From contig CAZEVZ010000001.1 of assembly GCA_964514935.1 (NCBI GenBank), positions 1 through 46,422 of the forward strand: a stretch of DNA of 46,422 nt, in the 5' to 3' direction. Position numbers and translations under genes: made by a program. Numbering within the stretch: position 1 is the first letter of the stretch; every line of letters starts with the position of its first letter. This document shows, one piece after another, positions 11,526 to 37,139 of this stretch. The DNA comes from an uncultured Muribaculaceae bacterium. Lineage in GTDB: Bacteria; Bacillota_I; Bacilli_A; RF39; UBA660. Under the pieces are notes generated by a model. It had not been told where the DNA came from and made no database searches. It was given only the letters and a program-made list of their open reading frames with translations.

Positions 11526-13157
11526 ATGAAGAAAATATGGTTATTTATGCTTCAAATAATATTTTTACTTGGTATAGGAGTTAAAAATGTCTATGCGGAT
11601 ATTTATTTAAATTATAATGAATTAAGTATAGGAGTTAATAATAGTTTAAAATTGAGTGTTTCGGGTAGTACATCAGGGTCATATACTTGGTCAAGCAGTA
11701 ATAAAAGTGTGGCTAGTGTAAGTAATGGAACAGTGACTGGTCTTGCAACTGGTACTAGTTATATTAGTGTTTCTGATGGTACTTATACGGCTACATGTAA
11801 AGTGATGGTTGTAACTAATTATATAGCAGTTACAGGAATAAATTTGGCTCAAAAAAGTGGAACAATCGGTGTCAATGGAACTAATAAGATAAGTGCTAGT
11901 GTTAAACCAAGTAATGCCACCAATAAGAAAATTGGTTATTCAAGTAGTGATAAAAGTATTGCCACTGTCGATTCGTCTGGAATTATTACTGGTAAAAAGG
12001 CTGGTACGGCATATATTACAGTTAGTGCTGAAGATAAGACGGCTTCCTATGTGATAACCGTTGTTAGCAATGTCGCTTTGAAAGGAATAAGCATTAGTCC
12101 TAAAAATTTAGAAATCAATGAAAATAGTAGTGGTAAAATAAATATTAGTTATAATCCAAGTAATGCCACCAATAAAAATGTTACTTGGAAGAGTAGTAAT
12201 ACAGATGTGGTAACGGTCGATAATATTGGTAATGTTAAGGCTGTTGCGCCCGGTAGTGCGACAATTACCGTTGTTTCAAATGATGGCGGTTTTGTCGATA
12301 AGGCTAATGTTGTAGTAAATGCTATCGATAAATCTTTAAAAGGCATATCATTAAATAAAAAAGAATTGACTTTAGATGTCGGTAAAACGGAGACTTTGGT
12401 AGTTACTTATAGTCCAAATAATGCGGAAAATAAAGAGGTAACTTGGAAAAGTTCCGATAGTAAAATTGTCAGTGTTGAAGAGGGTAAAATAACGGCTATT
12501 AAGCCCGGTAAAGCGACAATTACGGTAACTAGTAGTGAGGGTGATTATAAGGTAACTTGTCAAGTAAAAGTTCCTTCACCACCAATTGAGGAAATAAAAT
12601 TTAAAAAGGAAGAACAAGCGGTATATATTGGAACAGAAACAACTTTGGAAACAATTGCTACACCGGAAGATGCAATTATTGAAGATGCTTTATGGACCAG
12701 TAGTAATGAAGAAGTTGCTACTGTTGAAGATGGTGTTTTAAAAGCATTAAGTTTAGGAACAACGATAATAACCGTAAGCGATAAAGAGGGTAAAATAACG
12801 GCTTCAACAACAGTTAATGTGGTACCAGAACCAGAAAAAGAATTAAGTATAACAATTTCTGGGTATGAATTAAATTTTAATCCTAATGTCAAAGAATATA
12901 CATTAACTATTGGTAGTGAGAGTAGTCTTCAAATCAATGTCAATCGTGATAGTGATAAAGTAGTTATCGGTGGTAATCGCGATCTTCAAAATGGAAGTAT
13001 TATTACTGTAACTATAAATGATGAAGATAGTGTTACATACGTTATCAATATAAAGAAAAAAGTAAGTTATCTGTTATATTTTATTGCAATAATAACGGTT
13101 CTGCTAATTATAAATATAATAAGGATAATTATTAAAAGTAAGAAAAAAGATCAATAA
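11526..13157 (+). CDS. Surface protein with repeated Big_2 (bacterial Ig-like) domains, a cadherin-like beta-sandwich region and a C-terminal membrane anchor
   Basis: It has a signal peptide (MKKIWLFMLQIIFLLGIGVKNVYA) and about six repeats of the pattern ...SSN..VATVD..G.V.A...G.A.ITV.... It then has GYELNFNPNVKEYTLTIG and a hydrophobic tail followed by KSKKKDQ. Confidence 0.75.
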   Translation: MKKIWLFMLQIIFLLGIGVKNVYADIYLNYNELSIGVNNSLKLSVSGSTSGSYTWSSSNKSVASVSNGTVTGLATGTSYISVSDGTYTATCKVMVVTNYIAVTGINLAQKSGTIGVNGTNKISASVKPSNATNKKIGYSSSDKSIATVDSSGIITGKKAGTAYITVSAEDKTASYVITVVSNVALKGISISPKNLEINENSSGKINISYNPSNATNKNVTWKSSNTDVVTVDNIGNVKAVAPGSATITVVSNDGGFVDKANVVVNAIDKSLKGISLNKKELTLDVGKTETLVVTYSPNNAENKEVTWKSSDSKIVSVEEGKITAIKPGKATITVTSSEGDYKVTCQVKVPSPPIEEIKFKKEEQAVYIGTETTLETIATPEDAIIEDALWTSSNEEVATVEDGVLKALSLGTTIITVSDKEGKITASTTVNVVPEPEKELSITISGYELNFNPNVKEYTLTIGSESSLQINVNRDSDKVVIGGNRDLQNGSIITVTINDEDSVTYVINIKKKVSYLLYFIAIITVLLIINIIRIIIKSKKKDQ

Positions 13158-13161
13158 ATAA

Positions 13162-13197
13162 AATAAGGAACTGAAAATCAGTTCCTTATTTTATTTA
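13162..13197. terminator. Bidirectional hairpin terminator left of switch cassette A
   Basis: Stem AATAAGGAACTG (13162-13173) / CAGTTCCTTATT (13179-13190). It has an A-rich run on the left and a T-rich run on the right. Confidence 0.65.
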
Positions 13198-13202
13198 TAT
13201 GT

Positions 13203-13415
13203 TTGTCAACTATAGGTTGCAAAGTCCTTAAGTATTTTACTTGAGGACTATCATTTCTATTAAAATAATACCATAAAATAAGGGAATGTGCAATAAAAAT
13301 GGTGGTAATTTTTAGAAAAAAATTTGTGTCAAATTTTCTCCATGTTTTTGATAAATTCTTTATTTATAGGCATCTACGGAGATTATAAAAGTTGTTAAGT
13401 AAAATACTTAAGGAC
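13203..13415. promoter_or_regulatory. Switch cassette A: promoter segment bracketed by inverted repeats (candidate invertible promoter, promoter currently facing away from 13430..14494)
   Basis: The left dyad is TTGTCAACTATAGGTTGCAAA at 13203-13223. IR-L is GTCCTTAAGTATTTTACTTGAGGAC at 13224-13248. IR-R is GTTGTTAAGTAAAATACTTAAGGAC at 13391-13415 (22/25 complementary, outer 19 perfect). The minus-strand promoter is TTGCAC (13293-13288), 17 nt, TGgTATTAT (13270-13265). Confidence 0.6.
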
Positions 13416-13429
13416 AGAATGGTGATTAT

Positions 13430-14494
13430 ATGAAGAAAATATGGAAGGATAATGCGAAGTTAATACTGATTGTGACTATAGCAATTGTTTTGGCTAGTGG
13501 AGCAACGTATGCGGCAACGACAATGTATGATTCAAATATCGTTGGATATGATAATACGACTAGTGGTTTAAGATCTACGAATGTACAATCTGCTTTAGAT
13601 GAATTGTATGGTACAGTTGCTGAAGTAATTATCAATATTCGAGATAAAGTAGAGGAACTATATGAAATAAAAGATATTGCCAGCGGTGAAAGTCCCGCAG
13701 GGTTACATAATGCGATATTTAGAGGTAAAAACGTTTCAAAATATATGCCAAGTAGTATTGTCTCTGGAGGTGATGGTTCGATATACGATCGAATAGCTGG
13801 CACGAATGGTTATTCAATGTTTCAAGATTTATATGTTGGTGATTATATTGTTGCTGATAATGTCAACGATACAGTCAATGGTATCGTGTGGAGGATAGCT
13901 GGTTTTGATATATATTATATGTCTGGATATCCGACGGCGCTATCAAGTCATCATGCAGTGATAGTGCCTGATGAAATATTGGGAAAAGCAAAAATGAATA
14001 CATCAAATGTTACAACTGGTGGCTATGTAGGAAGTGCTATGTACACAACATTGACATCAACAACATTACCAACATATATTACTCCAATATTTGGTAGTCA
14101 CGTACTTGAATATAATACATTATTATCAAATGATGTAGGAACAACTTTATATAATAGATATGGTAGTAATACAGGTGCTTCAAATAATTGGAGTTGGTAT
14201 AATAGAAAATTAGATTTGATGAACGAAGTACAAGTGACTGGAGCAACTGAATGGTCAAGCAGTGGATTTGATATTGGTGCAGACACTGTTCAATTTCCAT
14301 TATTTAGACTAAGACCAGAATTTAAAATAGCCTATACCAGTAATGTGCATTCTTCAGATACTAGAGCTCATTATTGGTTACGTTCAGTGATGTCCTCATC
14401 CTCTTTTGCGTTTATTGCAGGTGAAGGATGTAGTGGTATGGGTGTTTTCGCGGGTGAACAATATGGTGTTCGTCCATACTTCTATATTGGATAA
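13430..14494 (+). CDS. Secreted tail-fibre-like family protein, paralogue 2 (long form, YWLRS...GVRPYFYIG domain)
   Basis: The Shine-Dalgarno is GGTGAT. The signal peptide is MKKIWKDNAKLILIVTIAIVLASGATYA, followed by the YDNTTSGLRSTNVQSALDELY motif. The C-terminal ~250 aa are colinear with paralogues 1 and 5. Confidence 0.85.
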   Translation: MKKIWKDNAKLILIVTIAIVLASGATYAATTMYDSNIVGYDNTTSGLRSTNVQSALDELYGTVAEVIINIRDKVEELYEIKDIASGESPAGLHNAIFRGKNVSKYMPSSIVSGGDGSIYDRIAGTNGYSMFQDLYVGDYIVADNVNDTVNGIVWRIAGFDIYYMSGYPTALSSHHAVIVPDEILGKAKMNTSNVTTGGYVGSAMYTTLTSTTLPTYITPIFGSHVLEYNTLLSNDVGTTLYNRYGSNTGASNNWSWYNRKLDLMNEVQVTGATEWSSSGFDIGADTVQFPLFRLRPEFKIAYTSNVHSSDTRAHYWLRSVMSSSSFAFIAGEGCSGMGVFAGEQYGVRPYFYIG

Positions 14495-14496
14495 AA

Positions 14497-14518
14497 AATA
14501 AGGGATAACCCCCTTATT
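14497..14518. terminator. Shared hairpin between convergent genes
   Basis: Stem AATAAGGG (14497-14504) / CCCTTATT (14511-14518). It overlaps the stop codon of the minus-strand deacetylase gene. Confidence 0.5.
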
Positions 14519-15461
14519 TATTTACTTTAATACTACCATAGAATAATGGTAATAAGATATAGTTGTTATCTTCTAGATACTTTATGGCATTTGGTAACAT
14601 TGAAATAGTCGTTTTATCGTAATCATGAAATAGAATTACTTCAATGTTTTCATTTATAGTACTGGTAAAATTGTTCCATGCAGTATCGTAGTTAGGTAAA
14701 TAGCCACCATCACCATCTTGGGCTGTCCAATCGACCCAACCATAGCCATTATTTTTTAATTGTGATAAAATGCTATCGACACTACTACCAGCCAGTGCTC
14801 TAGCGGTGGCAGAACCGCCAGGGAATCTAATGATATTTGTTTTAATACCAGTTCTATTTTTGATTAAATCTTCTTGTAATTTTACTTGATACATAAAACT
14901 ATCGGCATTGTTATATAATCCTCTAAAGATACCATGAGAATAAGTATGATTAGCAATCGTATGTCCATTATCGACAATTTTTTTATAAGTATCTTTACAA
15001 GAATAGTTTTTATTATCATAACATATATCTTTATCTTGTCCAATGGTAAAGAAGGTGGCTTTAACTTTATATTCTTTTAAGATATTTAATACTCGATCAG
15101 TAGAGTAATAGGGACCATCATCAAAAGTAATATAAGCTATTTTATAATTAGTTTCTTTTTTAGTAATCCTATTTTCTACTTGAGGGGCTAAATTAAAAAC
15201 CTTTTCTTTGGTATTTTTGGTGGTTTCATCAATATTAGTAAGATCATTTAGTTCACTGATTAAACTATCTTTTTTTTGGTTATATTCATTAGTTTCATTT
15301 TTTATAAGTAGCAATTTTGCGGTCAATTCATTATTTGTTTTAAGATGAGATGCATAGTTTAAGTAATTATTTATTGTTATATATGATAAGATAATTATGA
15401 CTAGTAAGATAATGATTATGAAGATAAAGCTTTTTCTAGTTTTTCTTTGGCTTTCTTCCAT
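14514..15461 (-). CDS. Polysaccharide deacetylase (NodB homology domain), membrane-anchored
   Basis: It has an N-terminal TM segment, then IAYITFDDGPY...TFFTIG...GHTIANHTYSH, which are classic NodB motifs. Confidence 0.85.
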   Translation of the reverse strand: MEESQRKTRKSFIFIIIILLVIIILSYITINNYLNYASHLKTNNELTAKLLLIKNETNEYNQKKDSLISELNDLTNIDETTKNTKEKVFNLAPQVENRITKKETNYKIAYITFDDGPYYSTDRVLNILKEYKVKATFFTIGQDKDICYDNKNYSCKDTYKKIVDNGHTIANHTYSHGIFRGLYNNADSFMYQVKLQEDLIKNRTGIKTNIIRFPGGSATARALAGSSVDSILSQLKNNGYGWVDWTAQDGDGGYLPNYDTAWNNFTSTINENIEVILFHDYDKTTISMLPNAIKYLEDNNYILLPLFYGSIKVNK

Positions 15462-15700
15462 ATTGCTAATTCCTCAATTTTATCTTTTTGGTCATCTTTT
15501 AACTTATTGATTTCGTTTTCATAATTTAAATTGCTTTCAATTATCTCATCATTTTCATCAGTTAACTTATTTATTTGTTCAGCTAATTTATTATTTTCAA
15601 TATTTATTTCATTTGTTTTGATAGCTGTATAAATAAATATTCCCAAGAGTACACATAATATAAATAATAAAACTTTTACTACTTTTTTCACTGCAATCAT
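15416..15700 (-). CDS. Small membrane-anchored coiled-coil protein
   Basis: MIAVKKVVKVLLFILCVLLGIFIYTAI is followed by a K/E/N-rich heptad-like sequence. The start is chosen at the Met before the TM segment (the track ORF extends to 15739). The gene overlaps the deacetylase start by 46 nt. Confidence 0.45.
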   Translation of the reverse strand: MIAVKKVVKVLLFILCVLLGIFIYTAIKTNEINIENNKLAEQINKLTDENDEIIESNLNYENEINKLKDDQKDKIEELAIWKKAKEKLEKALSS

Positions 15701-15766
15701 CTCATCTATTATGATACCCCAAAAAGGTAAAAATATCAATAAAAAAAATAGCGCTATGCTATTTCA

Positions 15767-15970
15767 TTAGTGATCATGATCTAAATCTTTAGTAAGTAAC
15801 CCTAACTGAATTAAACCGGCTACCATTACTAATACATAGACAATTCTAGTAAGTAGGGAACCGTCACCAAATAAGTATTCAACTAAATTGAAATTGAATA
15901 AGCCCACTAAACCCCAATTTAAACATCCGATAGCACTTAATACTAAACATGTCTTATATAATGTATTCAT
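15767..15970 (-). CDS. DUF378-family small membrane protein
   Basis: LSAIGCLNWGLVGLFNFNLVEYLFG is the signature of DUF378/YuzA-like proteins. Confidence 0.75.
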   Translation of the reverse strand: MNTLYKTCLVLSAIGCLNWGLVGLFNFNLVEYLFGDGSLLTRIVYVLVMVAGLIQLGLLTKDLDHDH

Positions 15971-16079
15971 ATGTTCCTCCTTTGATAATTATATTTTTAC
16001 CCAAAATTACATAATTATTCATCATATTGTGAAATTTATCCCATATAATTTACCATAAAGATAAAAAATGGGGTGAAGT

Positions 16080-17201
16080 GTGAAGAAAATATTTTTAATT
16101 TTAATTTTAATTTGTTTGGTTTTAACTGGATGTGGTAAACGCAATGAAAAGGAAGTGCTTAAAGGATTTCAAGATAAAGTACTGGGAGCTAATTCGTATT
16201 ATTTAACTGGGGAAATGGAACTAGTTAATAATGAAGATGTCTACAATTATAATATTGCGGTATCTTATAAGAAAGATGATTTTTATAAGATAGAACTAGT
16301 AAATGCAGTCAATGATCATAAACAGATAATTTTAAGAAATAATGAAGGTGTATATATTGTGACACCATCACTCAATAAGAGTTTTAAATTTCAAAGTGAT
16401 TGGCCATATAATAATAGTCAAGTATATTTGCTTTCTAGTCTGTTAGATGATATCAATAATGATGAAAATAGGACATTTGAGGATAGTAGTGAAGGTTATA
16501 TCTTTACTTCAGCAGTAAATTATCCGAACAATGAAAAATTAGTAAAACAAAAGGTATATTTTGATAAGGATTATATGCCTACGAAGGTCGAAGTATTAGA
16601 TGCCGATGGTAATAGTGAAATAACCATGAAATTTGATAAAATCGATTTAAGAACAGAATTTAATGATACTTATTTTGATTTAAATTCAATTCTAGATACG
16701 AATAAGAATATGGATAATCCAAGCAATACGACAAATAATAATAGTAATAATAATGATAATAGTGATAATAATAGTAATGGTAATACACCTAGTGAAACGC
16801 AGGAACCTAGCAATAGTAATGAAGAAAATAATGGTGATAATCAAACAAAAGAGACGGCGACAATCGATGATATTATCTATCCGATGTATTTACCGGTGAA
16901 TACTTATCTAACAAATACCGAGAGAGTAAATGCTGAAGATGGTGAAAGACTTATTTTGACATTTAGTGGTGATAGTTCTTTTGTCCTAATGGAACAGGTA
17001 GCAAAATATAGTGAAGTACCAGAAATTATCCCTACTTATGGTGATGTTGAACTCATCGGTTCATCATTGGCGGTAATCAATGATAATTCAGCCAATTGGT
17101 TCGATAATGGTATCGAATATTATATTGTTAGCGATGTTATGGCGACAGATGAATTGCTTCAGGTAGTTAGATCGATTAGTGTTCTTCCAGTTAGTAAATA
17201 A
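16080..17201 (+). CDS. Lipoprotein with an N/S/D-rich linker (possibly LolA-like fold)
   Basis: The start is GTG. The lipobox is LVLTGC. A low-complexity NTTNNNSNNNDNSDNNSNGN linker lies at about 16710-16860. The family assignment is from memory only. Confidence 0.55.
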   Translation: MKKIFLILILICLVLTGCGKRNEKEVLKGFQDKVLGANSYYLTGEMELVNNEDVYNYNIAVSYKKDDFYKIELVNAVNDHKQIILRNNEGVYIVTPSLNKSFKFQSDWPYNNSQVYLLSSLLDDINNDENRTFEDSSEGYIFTSAVNYPNNEKLVKQKVYFDKDYMPTKVEVLDADGNSEITMKFDKIDLRTEFNDTYFDLNSILDTNKNMDNPSNTTNNNSNNNDNSDNNSNGNTPSETQEPSNSNEENNGDNQTKETATIDDIIYPMYLPVNTYLTNTERVNAEDGERLILTFSGDSSFVLMEQVAKYSEVPEIIPTYGDVELIGSSLAVINDNSANWFDNGIEYYIVSDVMATDELLQVVRSISVLPVSK

Positions 17202-17273
17202 ATTAGGTGCTAAATTAAGCATCTTTTTTTTCACATTTTGTGGTATACTTATAGGTAGTGAAAGAGGGATATT

Positions 17274-17561
17274 ATGGATAAAGATAGTTTAAAATTATTA
17301 GCTAGTAAACTTATGTTTACAATGGATGAGAAAGAATATGATACCTTATCAGATGAATTTGAGATTATTCTTAAGCAGATGGATTTGATTGGTAAAATAG
17401 ATAATATTGAAAATGTTGAACCTTTAATATATCCATTTCCAATAGATGATGTTAAGATGAGAGAAGATGTGGTAATAGATGAATTGCCAATCGAAGATAT
17501 TCTTCAAAATAGTGGAGATAATCTATATAATCAAGTTAAATTACCTAAGGTGGTGGAATAA
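17274..17561 (+). CDS. gatC: Asp/Glu-tRNA amidotransferase subunit C
   Basis: A 95-aa protein immediately upstream of, and overlapping, gatA. An extended -10 (TGgTATACT) lies near 17240-17252. Confidence 0.85.
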   Translation: MDKDSLKLLASKLMFTMDEKEYDTLSDEFEIILKQMDLIGKIDNIENVEPLIYPFPIDDVKMREDVVIDELPIEDILQNSGDNLYNQVKLPKVVE

Positions 17562-18982
17562 TGAATATTACAGAAATTAGAGATAAATTAGATAATAATT
17601 TGATTACGAGTGAAGAATTAGTTGCTAAAAGTATTAAGTTGGCTAAAGAAAGTATGAAAGAATATAATCCTTTTGTAACTATTTTAGATGATTATGAGAA
17701 GATGGATAGTGATAGTTTAATTGCGGGTATTCCTTATGCTTTAAAAGATAATGTATCAACTAAAGGAATTCTGACGACTGCTAGCAGTAATATCCTTAAT
17801 AATTACATTCCTGTATACGATGCGACAATCTATAAGAAGTTAAAAGATGCTGGAGCTGTTTTGATTGGTAAGACAGTACTTGATGAGTTGGCAATGGGTG
17901 GAACAGGAACGACGGGACATACAGGATTGGTTAGAAATCCTTGGGATAAGACGAGACAAATAGGTGGTTCTTCAGCCGGAAGTGCGGCGGCGGTAGCGAT
18001 GGGAATAGTACCATTTGCTATTGGTTCTGATACTGGTGATTCGGTTAGAAAGCCAGCTGCTTATGGTGGAATTGTCGGTTTTAAACCAACTTATGGAAGA
18101 ATTAGTCGATATGGTTTGTTTGCTTTTGCTTCAAGTTTAGATCATTTGGGAGTATTTGCTCGAAATGTTAAAGATGTCGCTATGGTTATCGATATTGTCA
18201 AAGGACATGATGAAAAGGATATGACCAGTTTGCCAGATGATGGTAAGGATTATGTCAAAACCTTGGATAATTCTGTAAAAGGAAGAAAATTATTTTATAT
18301 TAAGGAAGCTTTGGAAAATGCTTCAAAAGAAATTGCCGATAATTTTAATGAGGTTATTAAAAAATGTGAAAGTTTGGGAATTGAAGTACATAGTGAATCG
18401 ATTGATAGGGATTTGTTACTTGCTTTGTATCCAACATATATGGCTATATCTTGTGCGGAAGCGACAAGTAATGATTCTAATTTGACAGGTATTCATTTTG
18501 GAGTTAGAGGAAATGGTAATAATCCCGATGAGATAATAAGCGATGCTAGAACTAAAGGATTTAGTGAACTAATTAAAAGAAGATTTATTATTGGTAGTTA
18601 TATTCTGCAAAGGGAAAATCAAGAAAAATTATTTTTAAATGCCTATCGTGTACGTAGACTAATCGTCGATAAAATAAATGAATTATTTAAAGAATACGAT
18701 GGACTTATCATGCCAGCAGCGGCAGGAATAGCACCTAAATTTGAAGATAAAAGTGATAAACTCAGCGATAAATATTTAATTTTGGATAATCATCTATGTA
18801 TTGGTAATTTTGGAGGATATCCGAGTATTACTATCCCTTCAGGTTTTGTTTCAGGTTTGCCAATAGCAATCAATATTACTGGTAGGGTAAGAGAAGATTA
18901 TCTAGTTTTAAATATGGCTAGTAAAATTGAGGGTACGATGGCATATAAGGATCAAATAGCGAAGGAGTGGGAAAATGTATAA
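17561..18982 (+). CDS. gatA: Asp/Glu-tRNA amidotransferase subunit A
   Basis: It carries the amidase signature GGSSAGSAAAVA...GSDTGDSVRKPAA and sits in gatCAB order. Confidence 0.95.
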   Translation: MNITEIRDKLDNNLITSEELVAKSIKLAKESMKEYNPFVTILDDYEKMDSDSLIAGIPYALKDNVSTKGILTTASSNILNNYIPVYDATIYKKLKDAGAVLIGKTVLDELAMGGTGTTGHTGLVRNPWDKTRQIGGSSAGSAAAVAMGIVPFAIGSDTGDSVRKPAAYGGIVGFKPTYGRISRYGLFAFASSLDHLGVFARNVKDVAMVIDIVKGHDEKDMTSLPDDGKDYVKTLDNSVKGRKLFYIKEALENASKEIADNFNEVIKKCESLGIEVHSESIDRDLLLALYPTYMAISCAEATSNDSNLTGIHFGVRGNGNNPDEIISDARTKGFSELIKRRFIIGSYILQRENQEKLFLNAYRVRRLIVDKINELFKEYDGLIMPAAAGIAPKFEDKSDKLSDKYLILDNHLCIGNFGGYPSITIPSGFVSGLPIAINITGRVREDYLVLNMASKIEGTMAYKDQIAKEWENV

Positions 18983-20396
18983 GACGGTTATCGGTTTGGA
19001 AGTTCACTGTGAACTTAAATCCAATAGTAAAAATTTTTCCAGTGCTAAAAATGGTTTTTCCGATATTCCAAACAGCAATGTATCAGTTGTCGATTTGGGA
19101 ATGCCAGGAATACTTCCGGTAGTAAATAAGGGAGCTGTTAGAAATTCACTCAAGATGGCTTTAGCAATGAATTGTAAAATCCCTAAATTTTTAACTTTTG
19201 AAAGAAAAAATTATTTCTATCCTGATTTACCAAAGGGATATCAAATTACCCAGTTTAAAAATCCCGTTGGTATAGATGGCTATGTAATGATAAATGTCGG
19301 AGGCAGTGAAAAGAAAGTTTTAATTCACGATACCCATTTGGAAGAAGATACTGCCAGTATGGATCACTATAACGACTATTCGCTACTAGATTATAATAGA
19401 TGTGGAGTTCCTTTGCTTGAGACAGTAACCGAACCTTGTCTAAATTCAGCAGAAGAAGCGGTAACTTTCTTGGAGACATTAAGAAATATCTTTTTGTATA
19501 CCGATACTTCGTATGCTAGAAGTGATAAAGGCCAGATTAGGGTAGATGTCAATGTCTCTTTGATGAAAGAAAATGATAAAGAATTAGGAACACGAGTAGA
19601 GATTAAGAATATCAATTCTTTTAGTGGGGTCAAAGAAGCTATTTTGATCGAAGTGGCTAGACAGACGGAAATTCTAAATAATGGTGGACATATTGAACAG
19701 GAAACGAGAAGATATGATGAAAATATGCATACGACATATATGATGAGAAGTAAAGAAGATGCGATTGACTATAGGTACTTTACCGATCCAAATTTACCAC
19801 CAATGAGAATCGATGATAAATGGATAGCAGAAATAAGAAAAGAGATACCGATATTACCTAATGAAAGATTTAATTTATATACGAATGAATATCATATCAA
19901 TGAAAAAGATGCATATACTATTGTCAGAGATAAGAAGATATCCGATTTTTATGAAGCATGTTTGAAACTACTTGCTGAACCTGTCCTTATTTCTAATTGG
20001 TTAACTGGCGATGTTATGAAAAATTTAAATAGAGATAGTTTGACTATCGATGAAGCCAAGATAGATCCGGCTAAATTGACTACTTTAATTAAGATGATTA
20101 CTGATGGTCAAATAAATGGTAAACAGGGAAAAGAAGTATTGGAGCATATGATGAATACGGGTAAAGATGCCAATACTTTAGTAAGTGAACTTGGAATGAC
20201 TCAGATAAGTAATGAAGATGAAATTAGAGAGATAGTTTTAGCAATTATGGATGAAAATAAAAATTTAATCGAAGATTATAAAGCAGGTAAAAATGTCTTT
20301 GGTTATATCGTTGGGTTAATTATGAAAAAGACTGGTGGTAAGGCTAATCCAGTAGTTACTTCGAAGATACTTAAGGATGAACTAATTAAAATATAG
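18975..20396 (+). CDS. gatB: Asp/Glu-tRNA amidotransferase subunit B
   Basis: VIGLEVHCELK...YFYPDLPKGYQITQ...LEEDTA are canonical GatB motifs. Confidence 0.95.
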   Translation: MYKTVIGLEVHCELKSNSKNFSSAKNGFSDIPNSNVSVVDLGMPGILPVVNKGAVRNSLKMALAMNCKIPKFLTFERKNYFYPDLPKGYQITQFKNPVGIDGYVMINVGGSEKKVLIHDTHLEEDTASMDHYNDYSLLDYNRCGVPLLETVTEPCLNSAEEAVTFLETLRNIFLYTDTSYARSDKGQIRVDVNVSLMKENDKELGTRVEIKNINSFSGVKEAILIEVARQTEILNNGGHIEQETRRYDENMHTTYMMRSKEDAIDYRYFTDPNLPPMRIDDKWIAEIRKEIPILPNERFNLYTNEYHINEKDAYTIVRDKKISDFYEACLKLLAEPVLISNWLTGDVMKNLNRDSLTIDEAKIDPAKLTTLIKMITDGQINGKQGKEVLEHMMNTGKDANTLVSELGMTQISNEDEIREIVLAIMDENKNLIEDYKAGKNVFGYIVGLIMKKTGGKANPVVTSKILKDELIKI

Positions 20397-20407
20397 TTGA
20401 CATAAAT

Positions 20408-20436
20408 TTGACAAAATAAGAAAAATTTGCTATAAT
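20408..20436 (+). promoter_or_regulatory. Perfect consensus sigma-A promoter driving the large non-coding RNA
   Basis: TTGACA (20408-20413), 17-nt spacer, TATAAT (20431-20436). A second TTGACA lies at 20397-20402. Confidence 0.75.
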
Positions 20437-28096: not shown

Positions 28097-28726
28097 CTAA
28101 AATTTTCGATATAAACCAATAGCCTTTCCTAAGATGGTAACATCATCTAAAATTATTGGTTCCATATAATCATTTTCTGGTTGTAATCTAAAGTGACCAT
28201 TTTCTTTATAAAATGTTTTTAACGTAACTTCATTTTCATTATTCATAGCAACAACCATGTCACCATTTTTGGCATTTTTTGTTCTCTCAACAATGACAAC
28301 GTCATCTGAAAGTATTCCCTTATTGATCATGCTTTCACCGTCAACTTTAAGGGTAAATACTTCTTTTTTCTTTGGAATTAAATATGCAGGTAAGGCAAAA
28401 ACTTCATTTGGTACCTCGATTGCTTCAATAGGTGAACCAGCTGTCACTTTACCAAGTAGTGGTACATTGACAACATCGTTTCCTTTGTCTTCATATTCAT
28501 TTGGAACCAATAGTTCCATCGCTCTGTTTCCCTCTTTACTCCTTTTAATATATCCTTTGTTAATTAGATGATTTATATGTACATGTACGGTTGCTGGACT
28601 AGATAAATTTATCGCCCCACAAATCTGTCTAATTGAAGGTGGATATTTATTTTCTGCATGAAATTGTTTGATATAATCTAAAACTTCTCTTTGTTTTCTT
28701 GTTAATCCTTCTGTTTTTTGTCTCAT
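28097..28726 (-). CDS. lexA: LexA repressor
   Basis: It has a winged-HTH N-terminus (LTRKQREVLDYIKQF...PSIRQI) and an S24 peptidase C-terminus (VDGESM...LKTF). The start is taken at the Met preceded by AAAGGAG (the track ORF is 10 codons longer). Confidence 0.9.
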   Translation of the reverse strand: MRQKTEGLTRKQREVLDYIKQFHAENKYPPSIRQICGAINLSSPATVHVHINHLINKGYIKRSKEGNRAMELLVPNEYEDKGNDVVNVPLLGKVTAGSPIEAIEVPNEVFALPAYLIPKKKEVFTLKVDGESMINKGILSDDVVIVERTKNAKNGDMVVAMNNENEVTLKTFYKENGHFRLQPENDYMEPIILDDVTILGKAIGLYRKF

Positions 28727-28773
28727 ATTAACTCCTTTCATAAAGTATATTATCACAAAAAAATATGTTTGTC

Positions 28774-28785
28774 AAACAATTGTTT
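28774..28785. promoter_or_regulatory. Candidate LexA operator next to the -35 of the lexA promoter
   Basis: A perfect palindrome AAACAATTGTTT lies next to the minus-strand promoter TTGACA (28775-28770), 17 nt, TAATAT (28752-28747). It resembles GAAC-N4-GTTC with A/T outer bases. Confidence 0.35.
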
Positions 28786-28924
28786 AGAAAATTATTGAAA
28801 AATAACAATGATAGGTAGTTTACACAAGAACGTAAAACACATACGAATGTTTATAAAATTTTACTTTTTCTATTGACACGAACAATTATATGTAATAAAA
28901 TGAAATTATGAAAGGGTGATTAGA

Positions 28925-29065
28925 ATGAATTTTTTAAAAAATAATAAAGGAGCTATCTTATTCTATGTAGTTATTTTAATGTCTACATTACTAATTATTA
29001 ACGATGTTAAAAGAGATGAATTTAGAGAAGAAAATCGTTATGTTATGACTAATTTACCAAACTAA
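28925..29065 (+). CDS. 46-aa single-TM peptide divergent from lexA (candidate SOS-induced division inhibitor)
   Basis: The peptide is MNFLKNNKGAILFYVVILMSTLLIINDVKRDEFREENRYVMTNLPN. The Shine-Dalgarno is AAGGGTGAT. The promoter is TTGACA (28873-28878), 17 nt, TAAAAT (28896-28901), with CGAACAATT in the spacer. Confidence 0.45.
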   Translation: MNFLKNNKGAILFYVVILMSTLLIINDVKRDEFREENRYVMTNLPN

Positions 29066-29074
29066 AAATACATA

Positions 29075-30001
29075 TCAATATTTTATTCCTTGATATGTAT
29101 TTCTTTTTTTCATTTCTTTATCGATATCATTGAGTAGTTGACATTTGTTTAATAACCAACTAGGTGCCAGTAGATTATCTTTATCTGGATCGGAAGTAAT
29201 TCGATTGATAACAATTTTAGGATCTAGGAGTTCAAGTTGTTTGATGACAATATCGATGTATTCTTCTTTAGTAATGATATGAAAATTTTCTTTTAGATAC
29301 AAACTAGCCATTTCCGTATCTTTTATTATATGTAACATATGAATTTTTATTCCCTGGATATCTAGTTCATTTAAATGTTTAACGGTTGCTAACATCATTT
29401 CTTCAGTTTCATATGGTAATCCATCAATAATATGTACGACGACATTGATATACCTTTCTCTTAATTTTTTGACCATTGAATCAAATTCGGCCAGTGAATG
29501 GCATCTATTTATCAACTTGGATGTCTTATCATGAATTGTTTGAAGACCTAATTCAATAGTTAAAAAGGTCTTTTTATTTAATTCAGTTAAATATTCTAAA
29601 CATTCATCGGTAATGGCATCGCATCTGGTAGCAATATTTAAACCAATGATATCAGGACAATTCAATACTTCTTCATATTTCTTTTTAAGAATATCAACGG
29701 GAGCATAGGTGTTGGTTCTGGCTTGAAAATAACCGATATATTTACATGGAATATTGGCTTTGTTGACAATTCTTTTCATATCTTCAACTTGTTCAGTTAA
29801 AGTTTTGCATCTATCACCACCAAATTCACCACTACCAGTTTTAGAACAATAGGTACATCCACCATATCCTTTAGTTCCATCTAAATTGGGACAAGTAAAT
29901 CCGGCATTTAAACTAATTTTAAAGACTTTTATTCCAAATTTGTTTTTATAAAAATAATTAAGGGTATGATATCTTTTATTATCTAAAGTATATTTAAACA
30001 T
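29075..30001 (-). CDS. Radical SAM protein, TIGR01212 (YhcC-like) family
   Basis: FTCPNLDGTKGYGGCTYCS near the N-terminus, together with the overall length, is typical of this family. Confidence 0.8.
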   Translation of the reverse strand: MFKYTLDNKRYHTLNYFYKNKFGIKVFKISLNAGFTCPNLDGTKGYGGCTYCSKTGSGEFGGDRCKTLTEQVEDMKRIVNKANIPCKYIGYFQARTNTYAPVDILKKKYEEVLNCPDIIGLNIATRCDAITDECLEYLTELNKKTFLTIELGLQTIHDKTSKLINRCHSLAEFDSMVKKLRERYINVVVHIIDGLPYETEEMMLATVKHLNELDIQGIKIHMLHIIKDTEMASLYLKENFHIITKEEYIDIVIKQLELLDPKIVINRITSDPDKDNLLAPSWLLNKCQLLNDIDKEMKKRNTYQGIKY

Positions 30002-30103
30002 AATACCACCAACAAGTATTTTAACATATATTCTAACTTTTAGGAATAATATTTCTTTTTTTCATAGAACATGCTACAATATATACGAATTGGAAGTGAT
30101 TTT

Positions 30104-31378
30104 ATGACGTTTGCTATTCATACATTTGGTTGTAAAGTAAATATTTATGAATCAGAATATGTAACTAATCTATTACTAAATAGTGGTTATAAGATGATAA
30201 ATTTTAATAGTAATGAAGAAGCCGATATTTATATAATCAATACCTGTACGGTAACGAATGAAGCTGATAAAAAAGATCGTAAACTTATTCATACGACTAG
30301 AAATAATCATAAAAATGCCATCTTAATAGTTATGGGGTGTTACTCACAATTAAATGCTGGTAGTATCATAGCTGATATTATTATTGGTAATAAGTATAAA
30401 AGTGAGATTATCGATTTAATTGATGAATATAACAAAAATCACCAAAAAATAGTAAAGGTAACCAATATTACTAAAACTAATTTTGAAGATATGTATATCG
30501 ATAGATTTTTAACTCATACGAGAGCCTTTGTTAAAATTCAAGATGGTTGTAATGCTTTTTGTGCTTACTGTACTATTCCTTATGCTAGAGGTGGTATTCG
30601 TAGTAAAGATTTTGATAAAGTGATTGCTGAAGTAACGAATCTTGTAGATAGTGGTTATAAAGAAATAGTCTTGACGGGTATACATACGGGGAGATATGGA
30701 ATAGATAAACATACCAATCTAGAAAAATTATTGCGAGAATTAGTTAAGATTAAGGGTATCTTTAGAATTCGTTTATCAAGTATTGAAATAAATGAAATAA
30801 CCGATGGTATCATCGATTTAATAAAAAATAATGATATTATGGCTAAACATTTACATATACCACTTCAATCAGGTAGTAATATAATTTTAAAGGATATGAA
30901 TAGGTTATATGATAAAGAAACCTTTATAGAAAAAATAGCTTATATTAGAAAAGAAATTCCCGATATTTCTATTACGACAGATTTAATTTTAGGGTTTCCT
31001 GGGGAAACGGATGAATTATTTAAAGAGACATTAGATACGTTAAATAAAATAAAATTTACGAAAATACATACTTTTCCGTATTCAAAAAGAAGTGGTACTA
31101 AAGCGGCCTCTATGCCTAATCAAATAGATGGTAATACGAAAAAATGTCGTGTTAGAGAAGTAATAAATTTATCTGATAAATATGAATTAGAGTATTATAA
31201 ATCAAAGATAGGTAATATCTACGATGGTATTATTGAAACGAGAAAAGATGGTAAAAAGATAGTAATTACTTCAAATTATATTCCTATTCAAGTGGAAACT
31301 GAATTAGTTAATAATACATTAGTTAAAGTTAAATTACAGGTAGTTAATGATAATGAAATAAGAGGAATTATTATGTAG
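30104..31378 (+). CDS. mtaB: Methylthiotransferase, MtaB-like (tRNA t6A37 methylthiolation)
   Basis: MTFAIHTFGCKVNIYESEY is the MTTase N-domain. The radical SAM motif CNAFCAYC and a C-terminal TRAM-like region are present. The start is taken at the Met after GGAAGTGA. Confidence 0.7.
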   Translation: MTFAIHTFGCKVNIYESEYVTNLLLNSGYKMINFNSNEEADIYIINTCTVTNEADKKDRKLIHTTRNNHKNAILIVMGCYSQLNAGSIIADIIIGNKYKSEIIDLIDEYNKNHQKIVKVTNITKTNFEDMYIDRFLTHTRAFVKIQDGCNAFCAYCTIPYARGGIRSKDFDKVIAEVTNLVDSGYKEIVLTGIHTGRYGIDKHTNLEKLLRELVKIKGIFRIRLSSIEINEITDGIIDLIKNNDIMAKHLHIPLQSGSNIILKDMNRLYDKETFIEKIAYIRKEIPDISITTDLILGFPGETDELFKETLDTLNKIKFTKIHTFPYSKRSGTKAASMPNQIDGNTKKCRVREVINLSDKYELEYYKSKIGNIYDGIIETRKDGKKIVITSNYIPIQVETELVNNTLVKVKLQVVNDNEIRGIIM

Positions 31379-31389
31379 TATAAAAAAAT

Positions 31390-31415
31390 AACATCACTAA
31401 TTATAGTGGTGTTTT
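31390..31415. terminator. mtaB terminator, bidirectional, left of cassette D
   Basis: Stem AACATCACTA (31390-31399) / TAGTGGTGTT (31404-31413). It has a T-run on the right and an A-run on the left. Confidence 0.6.
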
Positions 31416-31418
31416 ACA

Positions 31419-31632
31419 ATGTCAACTATAGGTTGCAAAGTCCTTAAGTATTTTACTTGAGGACTATCATTTCTATTAAAATAATACCATAAAATAAGGG
31501 AATGTGCAATAAAAATGGTGGTAATTTTTGAGAAAAAATTTTGTGTCAAATTTTCTTCATATTTTTGATAATCTCTTTATTTATAAGCATCTATGGAGAT
31601 AATAAAAGTTCTAAAGTAAAATACTTAAGGAC
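31419..31632. promoter_or_regulatory. Switch cassette D (candidate invertible promoter)
   Basis: The dyad is at 31419-31439. IR-L is at 31440-31464. IR-R is GTTCTAAAGTAAAATACTTAAGGAC at 31608-31632 (23/25). The minus-strand promoter is TTGCAC (31509-31504), 17 nt, TGgTATTAT (31486-31481). Confidence 0.6.
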
Positions 31633-31647
31633 AGAATGGTGATAAAG

Positions 31648-32640
31648 ATGAAGAAAATATGGAAGGACAATGCAAAGTTAATATTGATTGTAACTATAGC
31701 AATTGTATTGGCTAGTGGAGCGACATATGCCGCCACGACAATGTATGAATCAAATACCGTTGGCTATGATAATACGACAAGTGGACTTAATTCAACCAAT
31801 GTACAGGGAGCACTAGATGAACTATACGTATCAGCAAATAATTATGTAGCATATGATACTAGATTAGAAAATGTAGAAGATTTAATAAGAGCTAACGCAG
31901 GATTTCATAATTCAATATTTAGAGGAGAAGATGTTTCAAGTTATATGCCAAGTAGTGTTGTTTCTGGAGGAGATGGCTCTATATATAACCGAATTTCAGG
32001 AAATGGTTACTCATTATTTGAAGACTTATATGTCGGAGATTATATCGTAGCCAATAATATAACATGGCGAATAGCAGGATTTGATATCTATTATGGCAAA
32101 GGAGATACGGCATTTAATACTCATCACGCTGTAATTGTTCCTGACACGAACTTAACTAGTGCCGTTATGAATGATTCGAATACCACAAGTGGAGGATATG
32201 TTGGAAGTAAGATGTATACGACGACCTTACCAAGTGTTCTAACTACTTACATCAATCCCGTATTTAGTGGCCATGTACTATCACATAGAACATTATTAAC
32301 GAATAGTGTAGGTACTAGTGTAGCAAGTTCTGGATATGCAGGTTGGACTGGTGCAGCAAATAGTTGGGCTTGGTATGATAGACAAGTAGATTTGATGAAT
32401 GAAGTGCAAGTTACTGGCACTACAGCGGTATCAAGTAGTTTTTTCGATGTCGGGGCAGATAATATTCAATTCCCATTATTTAGACTAAGGCCAGAATTTG
32501 TTAATAAGCAGAGAAGTTGGTATTGGTTGCGTTCGGTTTCGTCCTCGTCTTATTTTGCTCTTATCAACGGCGGCGGGGATAGCAACCTCGGCAGCGCAAG
32601 CAACTCTTGCGGGGTGCGCCCAGCTTTTTACATCGGTTAA
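31648..32640 (+). CDS. Secreted tail-fibre-like family protein, paralogue 5 (long form; GC-rich NNC-codon 3' end)
   Basis: The start is at MKKIW as in the other paralogues (the track ORF begins 4 codons earlier). It is colinear with paralogue 1 and ends YWLRSVSSSSYFALINGGGDSNLGSASNSCGVRPAFYIG. Confidence 0.85.
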   Translation: MKKIWKDNAKLILIVTIAIVLASGATYAATTMYESNTVGYDNTTSGLNSTNVQGALDELYVSANNYVAYDTRLENVEDLIRANAGFHNSIFRGEDVSSYMPSSVVSGGDGSIYNRISGNGYSLFEDLYVGDYIVANNITWRIAGFDIYYGKGDTAFNTHHAVIVPDTNLTSAVMNDSNTTSGGYVGSKMYTTTLPSVLTTYINPVFSGHVLSHRTLLTNSVGTSVASSGYAGWTGAANSWAWYDRQVDLMNEVQVTGTTAVSSSFFDVGADNIQFPLFRLRPEFVNKQRSWYWLRSVSSSSYFALINGGGDSNLGSASNSCGVRPAFYIG

Positions 32641-34964: not shown

Positions 34965-37139
34965 ATGTACGCAAAGGTTATTATTGAATATGGTGCTAAA
35001 GCTGTCGATAGAGAATTTACATATATAATACCATTAGAATTAAAAGATAAAATTAAGATTGGTCATCGTGTAAAAGTACCATTTAATAATAATTTAATCG
35101 AAGGTTTTGTTTTGTCCATGACCGATAAATATAATGACAGTTATGAATTAAAAGAAATTGCTAGTTTATGTGATGATGAACCAGTGCTCAATAAGGAAAT
35201 GTTATTTTTAGGTAATGAAATAGCTAAAAATATTCTATGTAGTAAAATAAGTATTTTTCAAGCTATGTTACCTACTGCTTTAAAAGCTAAACATGATACA
35301 TTTATTGGAATTAAGAAGCAACGTTATTTAGTTCTTGATATCAGTTATCGTGATGCGAACAAATATATTGAAAATTGTAAATATCAAGGTCAGATAGATA
35401 TTATCGAGAAGTTGATTGTCAGCGATCGAATTTTAGTAAATAATCTTACCAGTAGTATCCAGACTTTGGTTAAAAATAAAATTGCTCATTTTGAATATGA
35501 GAATGTTGATCGTTATGTTACCCATACGACGGGAAAATACCATAAAGTAATTTTAAATGAGAGTCAAAAAGAAGTTGTCGATAGTGTCGATTTAAATAAG
35601 TATGATACTTATTTGTTGTATGGTATTACTGGAAGTGGAAAGACCGAAGTATATATGGAACTTATCGATAGAGTTTTGAAAAACGGCAAAACAGCCATCA
35701 TGTTGGTTCCGGAAATCAGTTTGACTCCCCAAATTGTCGACAGGTTTGTTACTCGTTTTGGAAGTGCCATAGCCATTTTACATAGTGGTTTATCCGATAG
35801 TGAGAAGTATGATGAATATCGTAAGATAATGGAAGGTAGAGTAAAAATTGTCGTCGGTGCGAGAAGTGCCATCTTTGCGCCCCTTAATAATTTAGGAATT
35901 ATTGTCATCGATGAAGAACATACAGGAACCTACAAGCAGGATAATAATCCCAGATATCATGCTAGAGATGTCGCTATTTTACGGGGAAAATATCATAATG
36001 CTCCGGTTTTACTAGGTAGTGCCACGCCTTCTTTGGAATCGTTTGCAAGGGCTAAAAAGGATGTTTATCAATTATTAACGCTAGATAAAAGAGCTGGTGG
36101 CGGTCAATTGCCGATGGTTAAAATAATCGATATGAAGAAGGAAGTAAAGCATGGTAATTTTATCTTATCAGAAGAACTTACTTCAAAAATAAAAGAAAAG
36201 ATAACTAAACATGAACAGGTCATTTTATTACTCAATCGTCGAGGTTATTCTTCGATGCTTACTTGTCGTGATTGTGGTCATGTTTTGAAATGCCCTAATT
36301 GTGATATTAGTTTAACATATCATAAGACAAGTAATACCAATAGATGTCATTATTGTAATTATAGCATTAAAAATGTCCGTATCTGTCCTGTATGTGGCTC
36401 TGATAATATGAAAGATTACGGTTTAGGTACTGAAAAATTAGAGGAAGAATTACACAAATTATTTGAGGCAAAAGTGGTAAGAATGGATGTCGATACGACC
36501 AGTAGAAAAGGCATGCATGAAAAAATAATCGAAGACTTTGGTAACCATAAATACGATATTTTATTGGGGACGCAAATGATTGCTAAAGGTTTAGATTTTC
36601 CACTAGTTACTTTGGTTGGGGTTATCAATGCGGATACTTCATTAAATATTCCCGATTTTAGAAGTGCTGAAAATACCTTCCAACTACTTAGTCAAGTATC
36701 GGGAAGAGCCGGTCGAAGCGATCTTGTAGGTGAAGTTATCATTCAGACTTATAATCCGGAACACTATAGCATTTTGCTTGCTAGCAAACATGACTATCTA
36801 AAATTTTATGAAGCAGAAATGGAACTTAGACGGATTCTTAATTATCCCCCATATTACTATTTAACTTTGGTAAATATAACCAGTAGAGATTACGATTTGG
36901 GTTTTAAAGAAGCAAATAAAATAGGCGATTATTTACGAAAAAATTTGGGAAAAGATACGAAGGTATTGGGTCCATCAATGGCCAGTATGTTTAAGATTAA
37001 CAACGTCTATCATTATCAATGTATCATTAAATATAAACATGATGATAAATTAAATAAGGTATTAACTGAATTAGATGAAATATATAAAGTAAACAATAAA
37101 GTCGATATTGCTATCGATGTCAATCCAATAGGGGTGTGA
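34965..37139 (+). CDS. priA: Primosomal protein N' (replication restart helicase)
   Basis: It has GITGSGKTEVY, DEEH and a Cys-rich zinc region (CRDCGHVLKCPNCDISLTYH...CHYCNY...CPVCGS). The promoter TTGACA-17-TATAAT lies upstream. Confidence 0.9.
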   Translation: MYAKVIIEYGAKAVDREFTYIIPLELKDKIKIGHRVKVPFNNNLIEGFVLSMTDKYNDSYELKEIASLCDDEPVLNKEMLFLGNEIAKNILCSKISIFQAMLPTALKAKHDTFIGIKKQRYLVLDISYRDANKYIENCKYQGQIDIIEKLIVSDRILVNNLTSSIQTLVKNKIAHFEYENVDRYVTHTTGKYHKVILNESQKEVVDSVDLNKYDTYLLYGITGSGKTEVYMELIDRVLKNGKTAIMLVPEISLTPQIVDRFVTRFGSAIAILHSGLSDSEKYDEYRKIMEGRVKIVVGARSAIFAPLNNLGIIVIDEEHTGTYKQDNNPRYHARDVAILRGKYHNAPVLLGSATPSLESFARAKKDVYQLLTLDKRAGGGQLPMVKIIDMKKEVKHGNFILSEELTSKIKEKITKHEQVILLLNRRGYSSMLTCRDCGHVLKCPNCDISLTYHKTSNTNRCHYCNYSIKNVRICPVCGSDNMKDYGLGTEKLEEELHKLFEAKVVRMDVDTTSRKGMHEKIIEDFGNHKYDILLGTQMIAKGLDFPLVTLVGVINADTSLNIPDFRSAENTFQLLSQVSGRAGRSDLVGEVIIQTYNPEHYSILLASKHDYLKFYEAEMELRRILNYPPYYYLTLVNITSRDYDLGFKEANKIGDYLRKNLGKDTKVLGPSMASMFKINNVYHYQCIIKYKHDDKLNKVLTELDEIYKVNNKVDIAIDVNPIGV

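Follow-up and report, generated by a model that had tools for sequence, protein, structure and literature searches.

The closest described systems are two sets of promoter switches, each run by one master enzyme. In Bacteroides fragilis the master serine invertase Mpi acts on at least 13 dispersed promoter regions, including those of 7 capsular polysaccharide loci (PMC5903667), while in Clostridioides difficile the tyrosine master recombinase RecV acts on several switches, among them cwpV, flgB, cmrRST and pdcB (PMC5903667, PMC7446863, PMC9286219). For Bacillus-like Firmicutes, a survey of a defined human gut community reported a median of 0 invertons per genome (PMC11892184). We analyzed a complete 46,422-nt NCBI contig (CAZEVZ010000001.1; hereafter, the window) of an uncultured gut member of the Bacilli, in which closely similar cassettes precede 4 paralogous genes for membrane-anchored surface proteins. 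These cassettes lie at positions 13203-13415 (c1), 26316-26529 (c2), 27244-27457 (c3) and 31419-31632 (c4). Our conclusion, to which we assign a probability of roughly 85%, is that each cassette is an inverton that phase-varies one member of this protein family. We regard the multi-locus phase-variation system that the cassettes form as real.

We began from an earlier note, made from the sequence alone, which had claimed that the 4 cassettes share one inverted repeat, a repeat spacing of 192-193 bp, a constant distance to the start codon and an internal outward-facing promoter. All of this was borne out, with a predicted promoter in each segment. The 19-mer AAGTAAAATACTTAAGGAC occurred 8 times in the window with 0 mismatches, forming 4 inverted pairs that start at 13224/13397, 26337/26511, 27265/27439 and 31440/31614. 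The mean number of matches expected by chance was 0.07, and none of 100 dinucleotide-preserving shuffles reached 8. Measured end to end, the repeats were spaced by 192, 193, 193 and 193 bp in c1 to c4, and the gap between the proximal arm and the ATG was 14, 14, 14 and 15 nt, respectively; this short spacer carries a GGTGA Shine-Dalgarno sequence. The arms extend imperfectly to 25-31 nt, giving each cassette two 25-nt sites in inverted orientation around an inner segment of 142 bp (c1) or 143 bp (c2-c4) that contains no open reading frame (ORF). All 4 cassettes consequently display the inverted repeats around a short intergenic segment by which invertons are recognized. The cassette observation is genuine, and the repeats are not the product of chance. 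Coordinates of the individual elements are given in Table 1.

Conservation of the cassettes reaches beyond the repeats. Column identity of the 4 cassette regions was 89% over 385 columns, and the conserved unit ran from 21 nt beyond the distal arm (TGTCAACTATAGGTTGCAAA) to about codon 60 of each gene, the shared first ~60 codons encoding MKKIWKDNAKLILIV...YDSNIVGYDNTTSGLRSTNVQSALDELY. Since only some of the cassettes of a sister species (see below) possess the block outside the distal arm, it probably belongs to the unit that was duplicated and is not a requirement of the switch. The extent of the conserved unit also bears on whether the cassettes might be a mobile element resembling a miniature inverted-repeat transposable element (MITE), with terminal inverted repeats and an outward promoter, that inserted repeatedly before genes. 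A length of ~190 bp, terminal inverted repeats of 19-31 nt and several intergenic copies are all features of such small, non-autonomous transposons. Against this, the repeated unit exceeds both repeats, by 21 nt upstream and, within the gene, by ~180 nt of coding sequence; a constant 14-15 nt separates the proximal arm from the ATG; no target-site duplication or other direct repeat flanks the repeats (TTGCAAA on one side, AGAATGG on the other); every copy is associated with the same N-terminal gene module; and the segment inverts in place. We rejected the MITE explanation as extremely improbable.

The inner segment presumably has promoter activity. TTGCAx-17-TGgTAnnAT was the sole promoter element conserved across 3 lineages, one of them that of the rabbit-gut contig L002 (see below). 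It always lies beside one arm, which in the window copies is the distal arm, and within the inner segment it is the part that is conserved best across these lineages. For c1 and c2, the scanner called TGCACA-16-TATTAT with TG. In 4 of 4 window copies the conserved promoter faces away from the gene, toward the 3' end of a convergent upstream gene, and the terminator hairpin of that gene sits between the two. The hairpin 5' of c1 was called by the scanner on both strands, while those of the other 3 cassettes were read from the alignment. As judged from the folds of c1 and c2, the outward transcript of the OFF state would run for no more than about 100 nt before it meets the upstream gene's terminator. 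The hairpin next to c1 would halt this transcript as well as read-through from upstream, and such terminators would insulate the cassettes. We also modeled the ON state of c1 and c2 by inverting the segment between the central triplets of the 2 sites. The resulting leader was ~49 nt long, with a site hairpin of about -10 kcal/mol that lacked a T-tract, and the GGTGA Shine-Dalgarno sequence was unpaired before the ATG. The modeled geometry of the ON state thus appears sensible. Gene-facing promoters in the present orientation (TTGAGG-17-AATAAT and GTGTCA-18-GATAAT) were considered and rejected, as they are weak and conserved in neither copies nor species. The earlier note had called all 4 cassettes OFF, while worrying that this call, or the whole idea of inversion, was wrong. 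On the evidence of conservation the orientation call is right, since the only promoter conserved over 3 lineages faces away from the gene at all 4 loci, and the second part of the worry is answered by the finding of both orientations in the sister species.

Contigs of the sister species were reached via close homologues of the paralogues and assigned relative to the window by nth (84% nucleotide identity for the gene, 85% identity for the Nth protein). They carry cassettes of identical architecture, and these homologous cassettes are present in both orientations. Contigs L011 and L012 represent a single locus that lies downstream of dnaD-nth, in synteny with c2 of the window, and encode the same protein, P0015. 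From the proximal site onward the 2 contigs are identical at 8566 of 8566 positions, while the inner segment is inverted: the promoter of L011 faces away from the gene, and in L012 ATTTTATGGTAATATTTAAATAGAAATAGGT precedes the proximal site, facing into the gene. The proximal inner half-site is GTTATA in L011 and GTCCTT in L012, the latter being the reverse complement of AAGGAC, the distal inner half-site of L011. This swap is exactly as predicted for a crossover inside the shared core, and the coding sequence is unaltered by the inversion, which led us to reject a shufflon or another gene-altering inversion; the inverted segment is non-coding. L010, an 11-kb scaffold, contains a complete and internally consistent cassette in the ON orientation, which was 90% identical to the OFF cassette L006b as the reverse complement compared to 65% on the same strand. 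The end of L017 consists of the left flank, a site, an ON inner segment, a second site and the reverse complement of its own left flank (40/40); provided that the assembly k exceeded the 25-nt repeat, such a path would need both the ON and the OFF distal junctions in one read set. Once flipped, the ON cassettes can be aligned with every OFF cassette, column by column. Of about 11 sister-species cassettes, only 3 were ON.

The ON copies come from metagenome assemblies, at 3 loci in 2 samples (ERZ28654070 and ERZ1461854), and could in principle be assembly artefacts created at inverted repeats. L012 includes only 31 nt of inner sequence, and the L017 end is a chimeric palindrome. However, the contig names (k81, k141, contig-81) imply an assembly k that exceeds the repeat length of 19-25 nt, so the junction k-mers should be present in the reads. 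In addition, the L010 cassette is complete within its 11-kb scaffold, 3 independent loci from 2 samples behave in the same way, and the half-site exchange is exactly what site-specific recombination would give. Artefacts are thus a scarcely credible source of the ON copies. At the level of assembled sequence, inversion is demonstrated in a congeneric species with homologous cassettes. The earlier note had held that an identical orientation at every locus in related genomes would speak against inversion; the sister-species loci vary.

The organization of the arms is likewise suggestive of site-specific recombination. Each arm is near-palindromic (e.g., GTCCTT-AAGTA-TTT-TACTT-GAGGAC), and the 13-mer AAGTA-NNN-TACTT is present at every site of every related locus; pairs of (A/G)TCCTTAAGTANNNTACTT spaced 130-150 bp apart could serve as a key in site searches. 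The outer half-site, (A/G)TCCTT or AAGGAC, is nearly invariant, while the inner half-site is more degenerate (GAGGAC, TATAAC, TGTAAC or AAGTCA). Within one cassette, nothing but the sense of the central triplet (TTT versus AAA) distinguishes the 2 arms, and it is by this difference that they form an inverted pair. This layout resembles the core site of a recombinase, in which 2 half-sites would surround an asymmetric crossover region. Complete cassettes fell into 4 triplet classes: TTT/AAA, which was the commonest and includes all 4 window cassettes, AAT/ATT (L011a), TTA/TAA (L011b, L012b and L017b) and AGT/ACT (L002b). The triplets of the 2 arms matched in 14 of 14 complete cassettes tabulated, pointing to at least 3 independent compensated changes in sites about 170 bp apart. 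Such covariation is expected if strand exchange requires identity of the crossover region while the protein ignores these bases. Two adjacent cassettes downstream of nth in the sister species have different triplets (ATT and TAA), which would block recombination between them. Since c2 and c3 are adjacent in the window, yet both AAA, a difference in triplets is not a strict rule. An additional AAGTA-NNN-TACTT match (AAGTATGATACTT) at 35598-35610, inside priA, stands alone, with neither a partner site nor outer arms, and most likely represents chance.

The near-palindromic arms also score as terminator-like hairpins, and the identical 19-mer at 5854-5876 of L001, an Acholeplasmatales metagenome-assembled genome (MAG) from rumen, is the terminator hairpin of a T-box leader. 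Both observations would suit an explanation without DNA inversion, in which the repeats act as terminator or attenuator hairpins, or serve a common repressor of the paralogues as its palindromic operator. We consider this explanation very unlikely: homologous cassettes are physically inverted with an exchange of half-sites, the conserved promoter faces away from the gene, which would be senseless for a fixed leader, the cassettes match no Rfam family, and the central triplets covary between arms 170 bp apart. The L001 19-mer is coincidental, and a switch cannot be diagnosed from the arm sequence alone.

In the mechanism that we favor, a remotely encoded site-specific recombinase would bind both sites of a cassette, and strand exchange inside the shared AAGTA-NNN-TACTT core would flip the inner segment. 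In the OFF state, the promoter would fire away from the gene into the terminator of the convergent upstream gene. In the ON state, it would lie ~49 nt upstream of the ATG and produce a leader in which the site hairpin comes before an unpaired GGTGA Shine-Dalgarno sequence. Several points weigh against this mechanism. The promoter is a call from consensus and conservation, and the strict scanner misses the sister-species version (8/12 plus TG). The -10 element of c3 is without the invariant final T (TATTAG, 27306-27311), a base also found in L013, an independent assembly of the same species; thus, the c3 switch may give weaker expression even if ON. The enzyme was not found: a Pfam scan of the 26 larger ORFs of the window returned no match to a tyrosine- or serine-recombinase family. 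All copies from the window's own species are OFF, namely the 4 window loci, c2 in L003, c2 and c3 in L013 and c3 at the end of L014. Finally, the 4 window cassettes share their core triplet, making recombination between cassettes possible, and c2 and c3 are only 928 bp apart; no inter-cassette rearrangement was observed between the window and L013, which are collinear and 99.4% identical.

Some of these points, that is, the OFF orientation of every own-species copy in the window and in other assemblies, the degraded -10 element of c3 and the lack of a recombinase within 46 kb, would equally fit a locked relic, in which the recombinase was lost or is silent in this species, the switches have become fixed in the OFF position, and the paralogues either are silent or have another mode of expression. 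We view a relic as unlikely. All 8 arms retain the unchanged 19-mer, and the 4 promoters are nearly identical. Furthermore, the coding regions of the paralogues stay open and diverge only after about codon 60, suggesting selection or homogenization instead of decay. A mostly-OFF consensus is in any case expected if one or a few loci are ON per cell, and ON copies were a minority in the sister species as well. In keeping with the inverton interpretation, we infer that inversion also takes place in the window's own species.

Where the recombinase is encoded can be narrowed to some extent. Consistent with the claim of the earlier note that the window has no recombinase, the named ORFs outside the Pfam scan (gatCAB, dnaD, nth, mtaB-like and clpB) were identified from their translations or from the gene table of L003, and the gene tables of related contigs list no recombinase. 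Two larger unassigned ORFs, 42169-43767 and 43889-44503, had no match among solved structures and resemble either membrane proteins or proteins of unknown type. The data are thus compatible solely with a recombinase that acts in trans, and a single shared enzyme presumably serves all 4 loci. The dyad axis of the site passes through a base, making the site odd in length (9-7-9 or 11-3-11). A 7-bp overlap is typical of tyrosine recombinases, and a 2-bp crossover of serine invertases. Because an odd-length dyad fits a 7-bp overlap (TATTTTA between 9-bp arms) better than a 2-bp crossover, we lean slightly toward a tyrosine recombinase.

The 4 loci are dispersed among housekeeping genes, as the earlier note had described. 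LexA, a radical-SAM protein, PriA and others were confirmed by Pfam, and the L003 gene table lists GatB, DnaD and the HhH-GPD domain of Nth, while mtaB and clpB were recognized from translations only. Amid these housekeeping genes, at 38926-39420, is a gene for a 164-aa protein with a Bro-N domain, which is typical of phage and antirepressor proteins.

We searched more widely for cassettes and for the ON state. ON junctions of own-species copies are predicted to read GATAGTCCTCAAGTAAAATACTTAAGGACA(G/A)AATGG or TTGCAAAGTCCTTAAGTATTTTACTTNANNACTTTTAT, and the ON-junction pattern GATAGTCCTNAAGTAAAATACTTAAGGACANAATGG had 0 matches in JGI metagenome contigs. L014, L015 and L019, which are from the same species, start inside or at the end of a proximal arm and are uninformative with respect to orientation there. 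Scanning species-representative genomes with the 19-mer identified one true relative, L002, a MAG of rabbit-gut Bacilli, besides the coincidence in L001. The same scan gave one chance match in GC-rich DNA among metagenome contigs (L004) and 0 matches among viral contigs. L002 has 2 cassettes of window-like architecture, at 380-575 and 2590-2790, both OFF, the inner segment being 132 bp in each. The genes downstream belong to another family of anchored proteins, represented by a 657-aa ORF with 2 copies of a repeat unit and by a truncated gene with a similar N-terminus. One of the L002 cassettes has the triplet AGT/ACT, and in the other the sense of the triplet relative to the gene is opposite to that in the window. 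More distant homologues of the paralogues (L007-L009) had no cassette upstream. A literature search on the repeat sequence found only unrelated primers.

The genes behind the switches encode proteins that share an N-terminal module and differ in their heads. The start of the contig falls inside a fifth paralogue, which the earlier note had listed and which is genuine, as it shares the paralogues' C-terminal domain. The AlphaFold model of paralogue 1 (mean predicted local distance difference test score 77.7) displays a transmembrane helix at the N-terminus, then a helical stalk and, at the C-terminus, a globular domain. A Foldseek search with paralogue 1 against viral models yielded 23 matches at E <= 1e-3 (best E 1e-24), many of which are annotated as DUF6273, 'Receptor Binding Protein' or tail fibre. 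The sole significant match in the PDB was the IgA peptidase of Thomasclavelia ramosa (E 4.8e-4; the region of the match was not inspected). The N-terminal domain of this peptidase has been described as C-type-lectin-like (PMC12237041), which is consistent with the DUF6273-type viral matches. Altogether, 3 of the 5 paralogues have heads that resemble phage receptor-binding proteins (DUF6273, C-type-lectin-like). The heads of paralogues 2 and 3 matched no family in Pfam, PHROGs or NCBIfam, and for the paralogues in general the PHROGs and NCBIfam scans gave nothing useful; the 62-aa N-terminal module, used by itself as a protein query, had just one match, which was uninformative. Widespread homologues of 549-611 aa, including P0044, P0049 and P0098, are tail-fibre-like, with KGLSTNDFT and NRHTHSNKSxLD repeats, and one of their clusters comprises 887 members. 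Their identity to paralogues 1, 4 and 5 over the common C-terminal head is 44-47%, which suggests that the head domain was exchanged between phages and host surface proteins.

Taken together, the structural model and domain matches indicate that the switches would control alternative surface-exposed binding heads. Because several dispersed paralogues lie behind the shared site and the majority of copies are OFF, a cell probably displays only a few of its alternative heads at any time. More speculatively, a single recombinase might run a genome-wide program to display a few of many heads, several of which would be domesticated phage receptor-binding domains. The central triplet would then serve as an address code that sorts cassettes into mutually non-recombining classes and thereby protects the chromosome against inter-cassette rearrangements. 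We offer this extended scheme as a tentative possibility that is rather less likely than not to hold in full.

Table 1. Positions of cassette elements and of the genes that they precede, numbered along the 46,422-nt window
Feature	Position	Strand	Remarks
Fifth paralogue, 3' part	1-818	+	DUF6273-like head; cut by contig end
Terminator hairpin between upstream gene and c1	13154-13198	both	bidirectional; scanner call and fold of outward RNA
c1 outer conserved block	13203-13223	+	TTGTCAACTATAGGTTGCAAA; outside invertible segment; in all 4 window cassettes, only some sister-species cassettes
c1 distal recombination site (putative)	13224-13248		GTCCTT AAGTA-TTT-TACTT GAGGAC
c1 invertible inner segment	13249-13390		142 bp
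c1 promoter (predicted)	13293-13265	-	TTGCAC-17-TGgTATTAT; away from gene (OFF); scanner match with TG; homologous element kept across lineages
c1 proximal recombination site (putative)	13391-13415		GTTGTT AAGTA-AAA-TACTT AAGGAC
Paralogue 1	13430-14494	+	354 aa; N-terminal membrane anchor, helical stalk, DUF6273 / C-type-lectin-like head
c2 outer conserved block	26316-26336	+	
c2 distal site (putative)	26337-26361		
c2 invertible inner segment	26362-26504		143 bp
c2 promoter (predicted)	26406-26378	-	TTGCAC-17-TGgTATTAT; OFF orientation
c2 proximal site (putative)	26505-26529		GTCCTC AAGTA-AAA-TACTT AAGGAC; best dyad among the four
Paralogue 2	26544-27164	+	206 aa; common N-terminal module, different head without family match
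c3 outer conserved block	27244-27264	+	
c3 distal site (putative)	27265-27289		
c3 invertible inner segment	27290-27432		143 bp
c3 promoter (predicted)	27334-27306	-	-10 is TATTAG (without final T)
c3 proximal site (putative)	27433-27457		
Paralogue 3	27472-28056	+	194 aa; common N-terminal module, third head type
c4 outer conserved block	31419-31439	+	
c4 distal site (putative)	31440-31464		
c4 invertible inner segment	31465-31607		143 bp
c4 promoter (predicted)	31509-31481	-	OFF orientation
c4 proximal site (putative)	31608-31632		
Paralogue 4	31648-32640	+	330 aa from MKKIW start (alternative ATG 31636); DUF6273-like head

Other features of the window deserve mention. Two additional genes for surface proteins have no cassette upstream; one encodes a repeat-rich protein of 2846 aa with an N-terminal anchor (1107-9647), and the other a 543-aa protein with five Big_2 domains and an MKKIW start (11526-13157). 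With these 2 proteins and the paralogues, the contig has an unusual wealth of surface proteins. At 20433-21017 on the + strand, just downstream of gatB (18975-20396), lies a full-length OLE (ornate large extremophilic) RNA (Rfam, 359.8 bits). The ORF that follows (21025-21549) encodes a 174-aa multi-pass membrane protein that could be OapA-like, and the 174-aa gene occupies the equivalent place on contigs L003 and L011. A Cys- and Thr-rich ORF of 523 aa (21670-23241), which is situated downstream of the OLE locus, contains 2 tandem 96-nt repeats (22377-22568) that are 75% identical. A T-box leader at 44897-45087 on the + strand (95 bits, barely above the gathering score) precedes an ORF that is truncated by the end of the contig.

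These findings place multi-locus phase variation of the master-recombinase type, best known in Bacteroides and C. difficile, in uncultured gut Bacilli, a lineage in which invertons have seldom been reported; related cassette copies were also present in rumen-labelled and rabbit-labelled records. The compact site (AAGTA-NNN-TACTT with AAGGAC outer arms) may serve as a search key for further switches and, by co-occurrence, for the recombinase itself, while the matching triplets predict which bases must be identical for strand exchange. Given the heads of 3 of 5 paralogues that resemble phage receptor-binding proteins, the variation may concern glycan or host binding, or interactions with phages. 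Current understanding is not overturned. Because a class of multi-locus invertons under a distant master recombinase is already established (PMC5903667), the earlier note overstated the interest of the observation. The kind of switch is known from Mpi- and RecV-like regulons; the repeat sequence is previously undescribed.

Among known systems, the single-locus switches are the less similar. E. coli fimS (FimB/FimE) and Salmonella hin/hix likewise carry a promoter on a short segment between inverted repeats and turn a surface appendage ON or OFF, but each is a single locus with its recombinase gene adjacent or inside, in contrast to the several loci without an adjacent recombinase described here. 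The hix sites are 26 bp long (12-2-12), whereas the present site is of odd length with a dyad centred on a base. We rejected a Hin/Gin-type switch because of this odd length, the lack of an ORF in the segment and the absence of an adjacent recombinase. The RecV switches are closer, sharing a Firmicute host, small segments (~150-200 bp) upstream of surface or regulatory genes, a remote recombinase and, in the case of cwpV, control of a surface protein. They differ in that the C. difficile repeats vary by switch and some switches act after initiation (Rho-dependent or terminator-based), while in the present system a single site motif and a single promoter module recur before paralogues that have their first ~60 codons in common. 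The Mpi regulon is similar in its shared inverted-repeat motif at dispersed small promoter segments, remote recombinase, alternative surface structures and mostly-OFF state. Like that regulon, the window has one repeat motif at dispersed loci (4 over 18 kb) under a recombinase that is apparently remote and presumably single. The differences are also clear: the host belongs to the Bacillota rather than the Bacteroidota; the repeat is AAGTA-NNN-TACTT with AAGGAC outer arms, and in the form (A/G)TCCTTAAGTA-NNN-TACTT... we take it to be unrelated to the Bacteroides Mpi motif; the predicted promoter is of the sigma-A type with an extended -10 and not the Bacteroides promoter motif; and single protein genes are controlled in place of polysaccharide operons, with no UpxY/UpxZ-type cross-regulation evident here. 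Thus, the system resembles the Mpi regulon in its operation without belonging to it.

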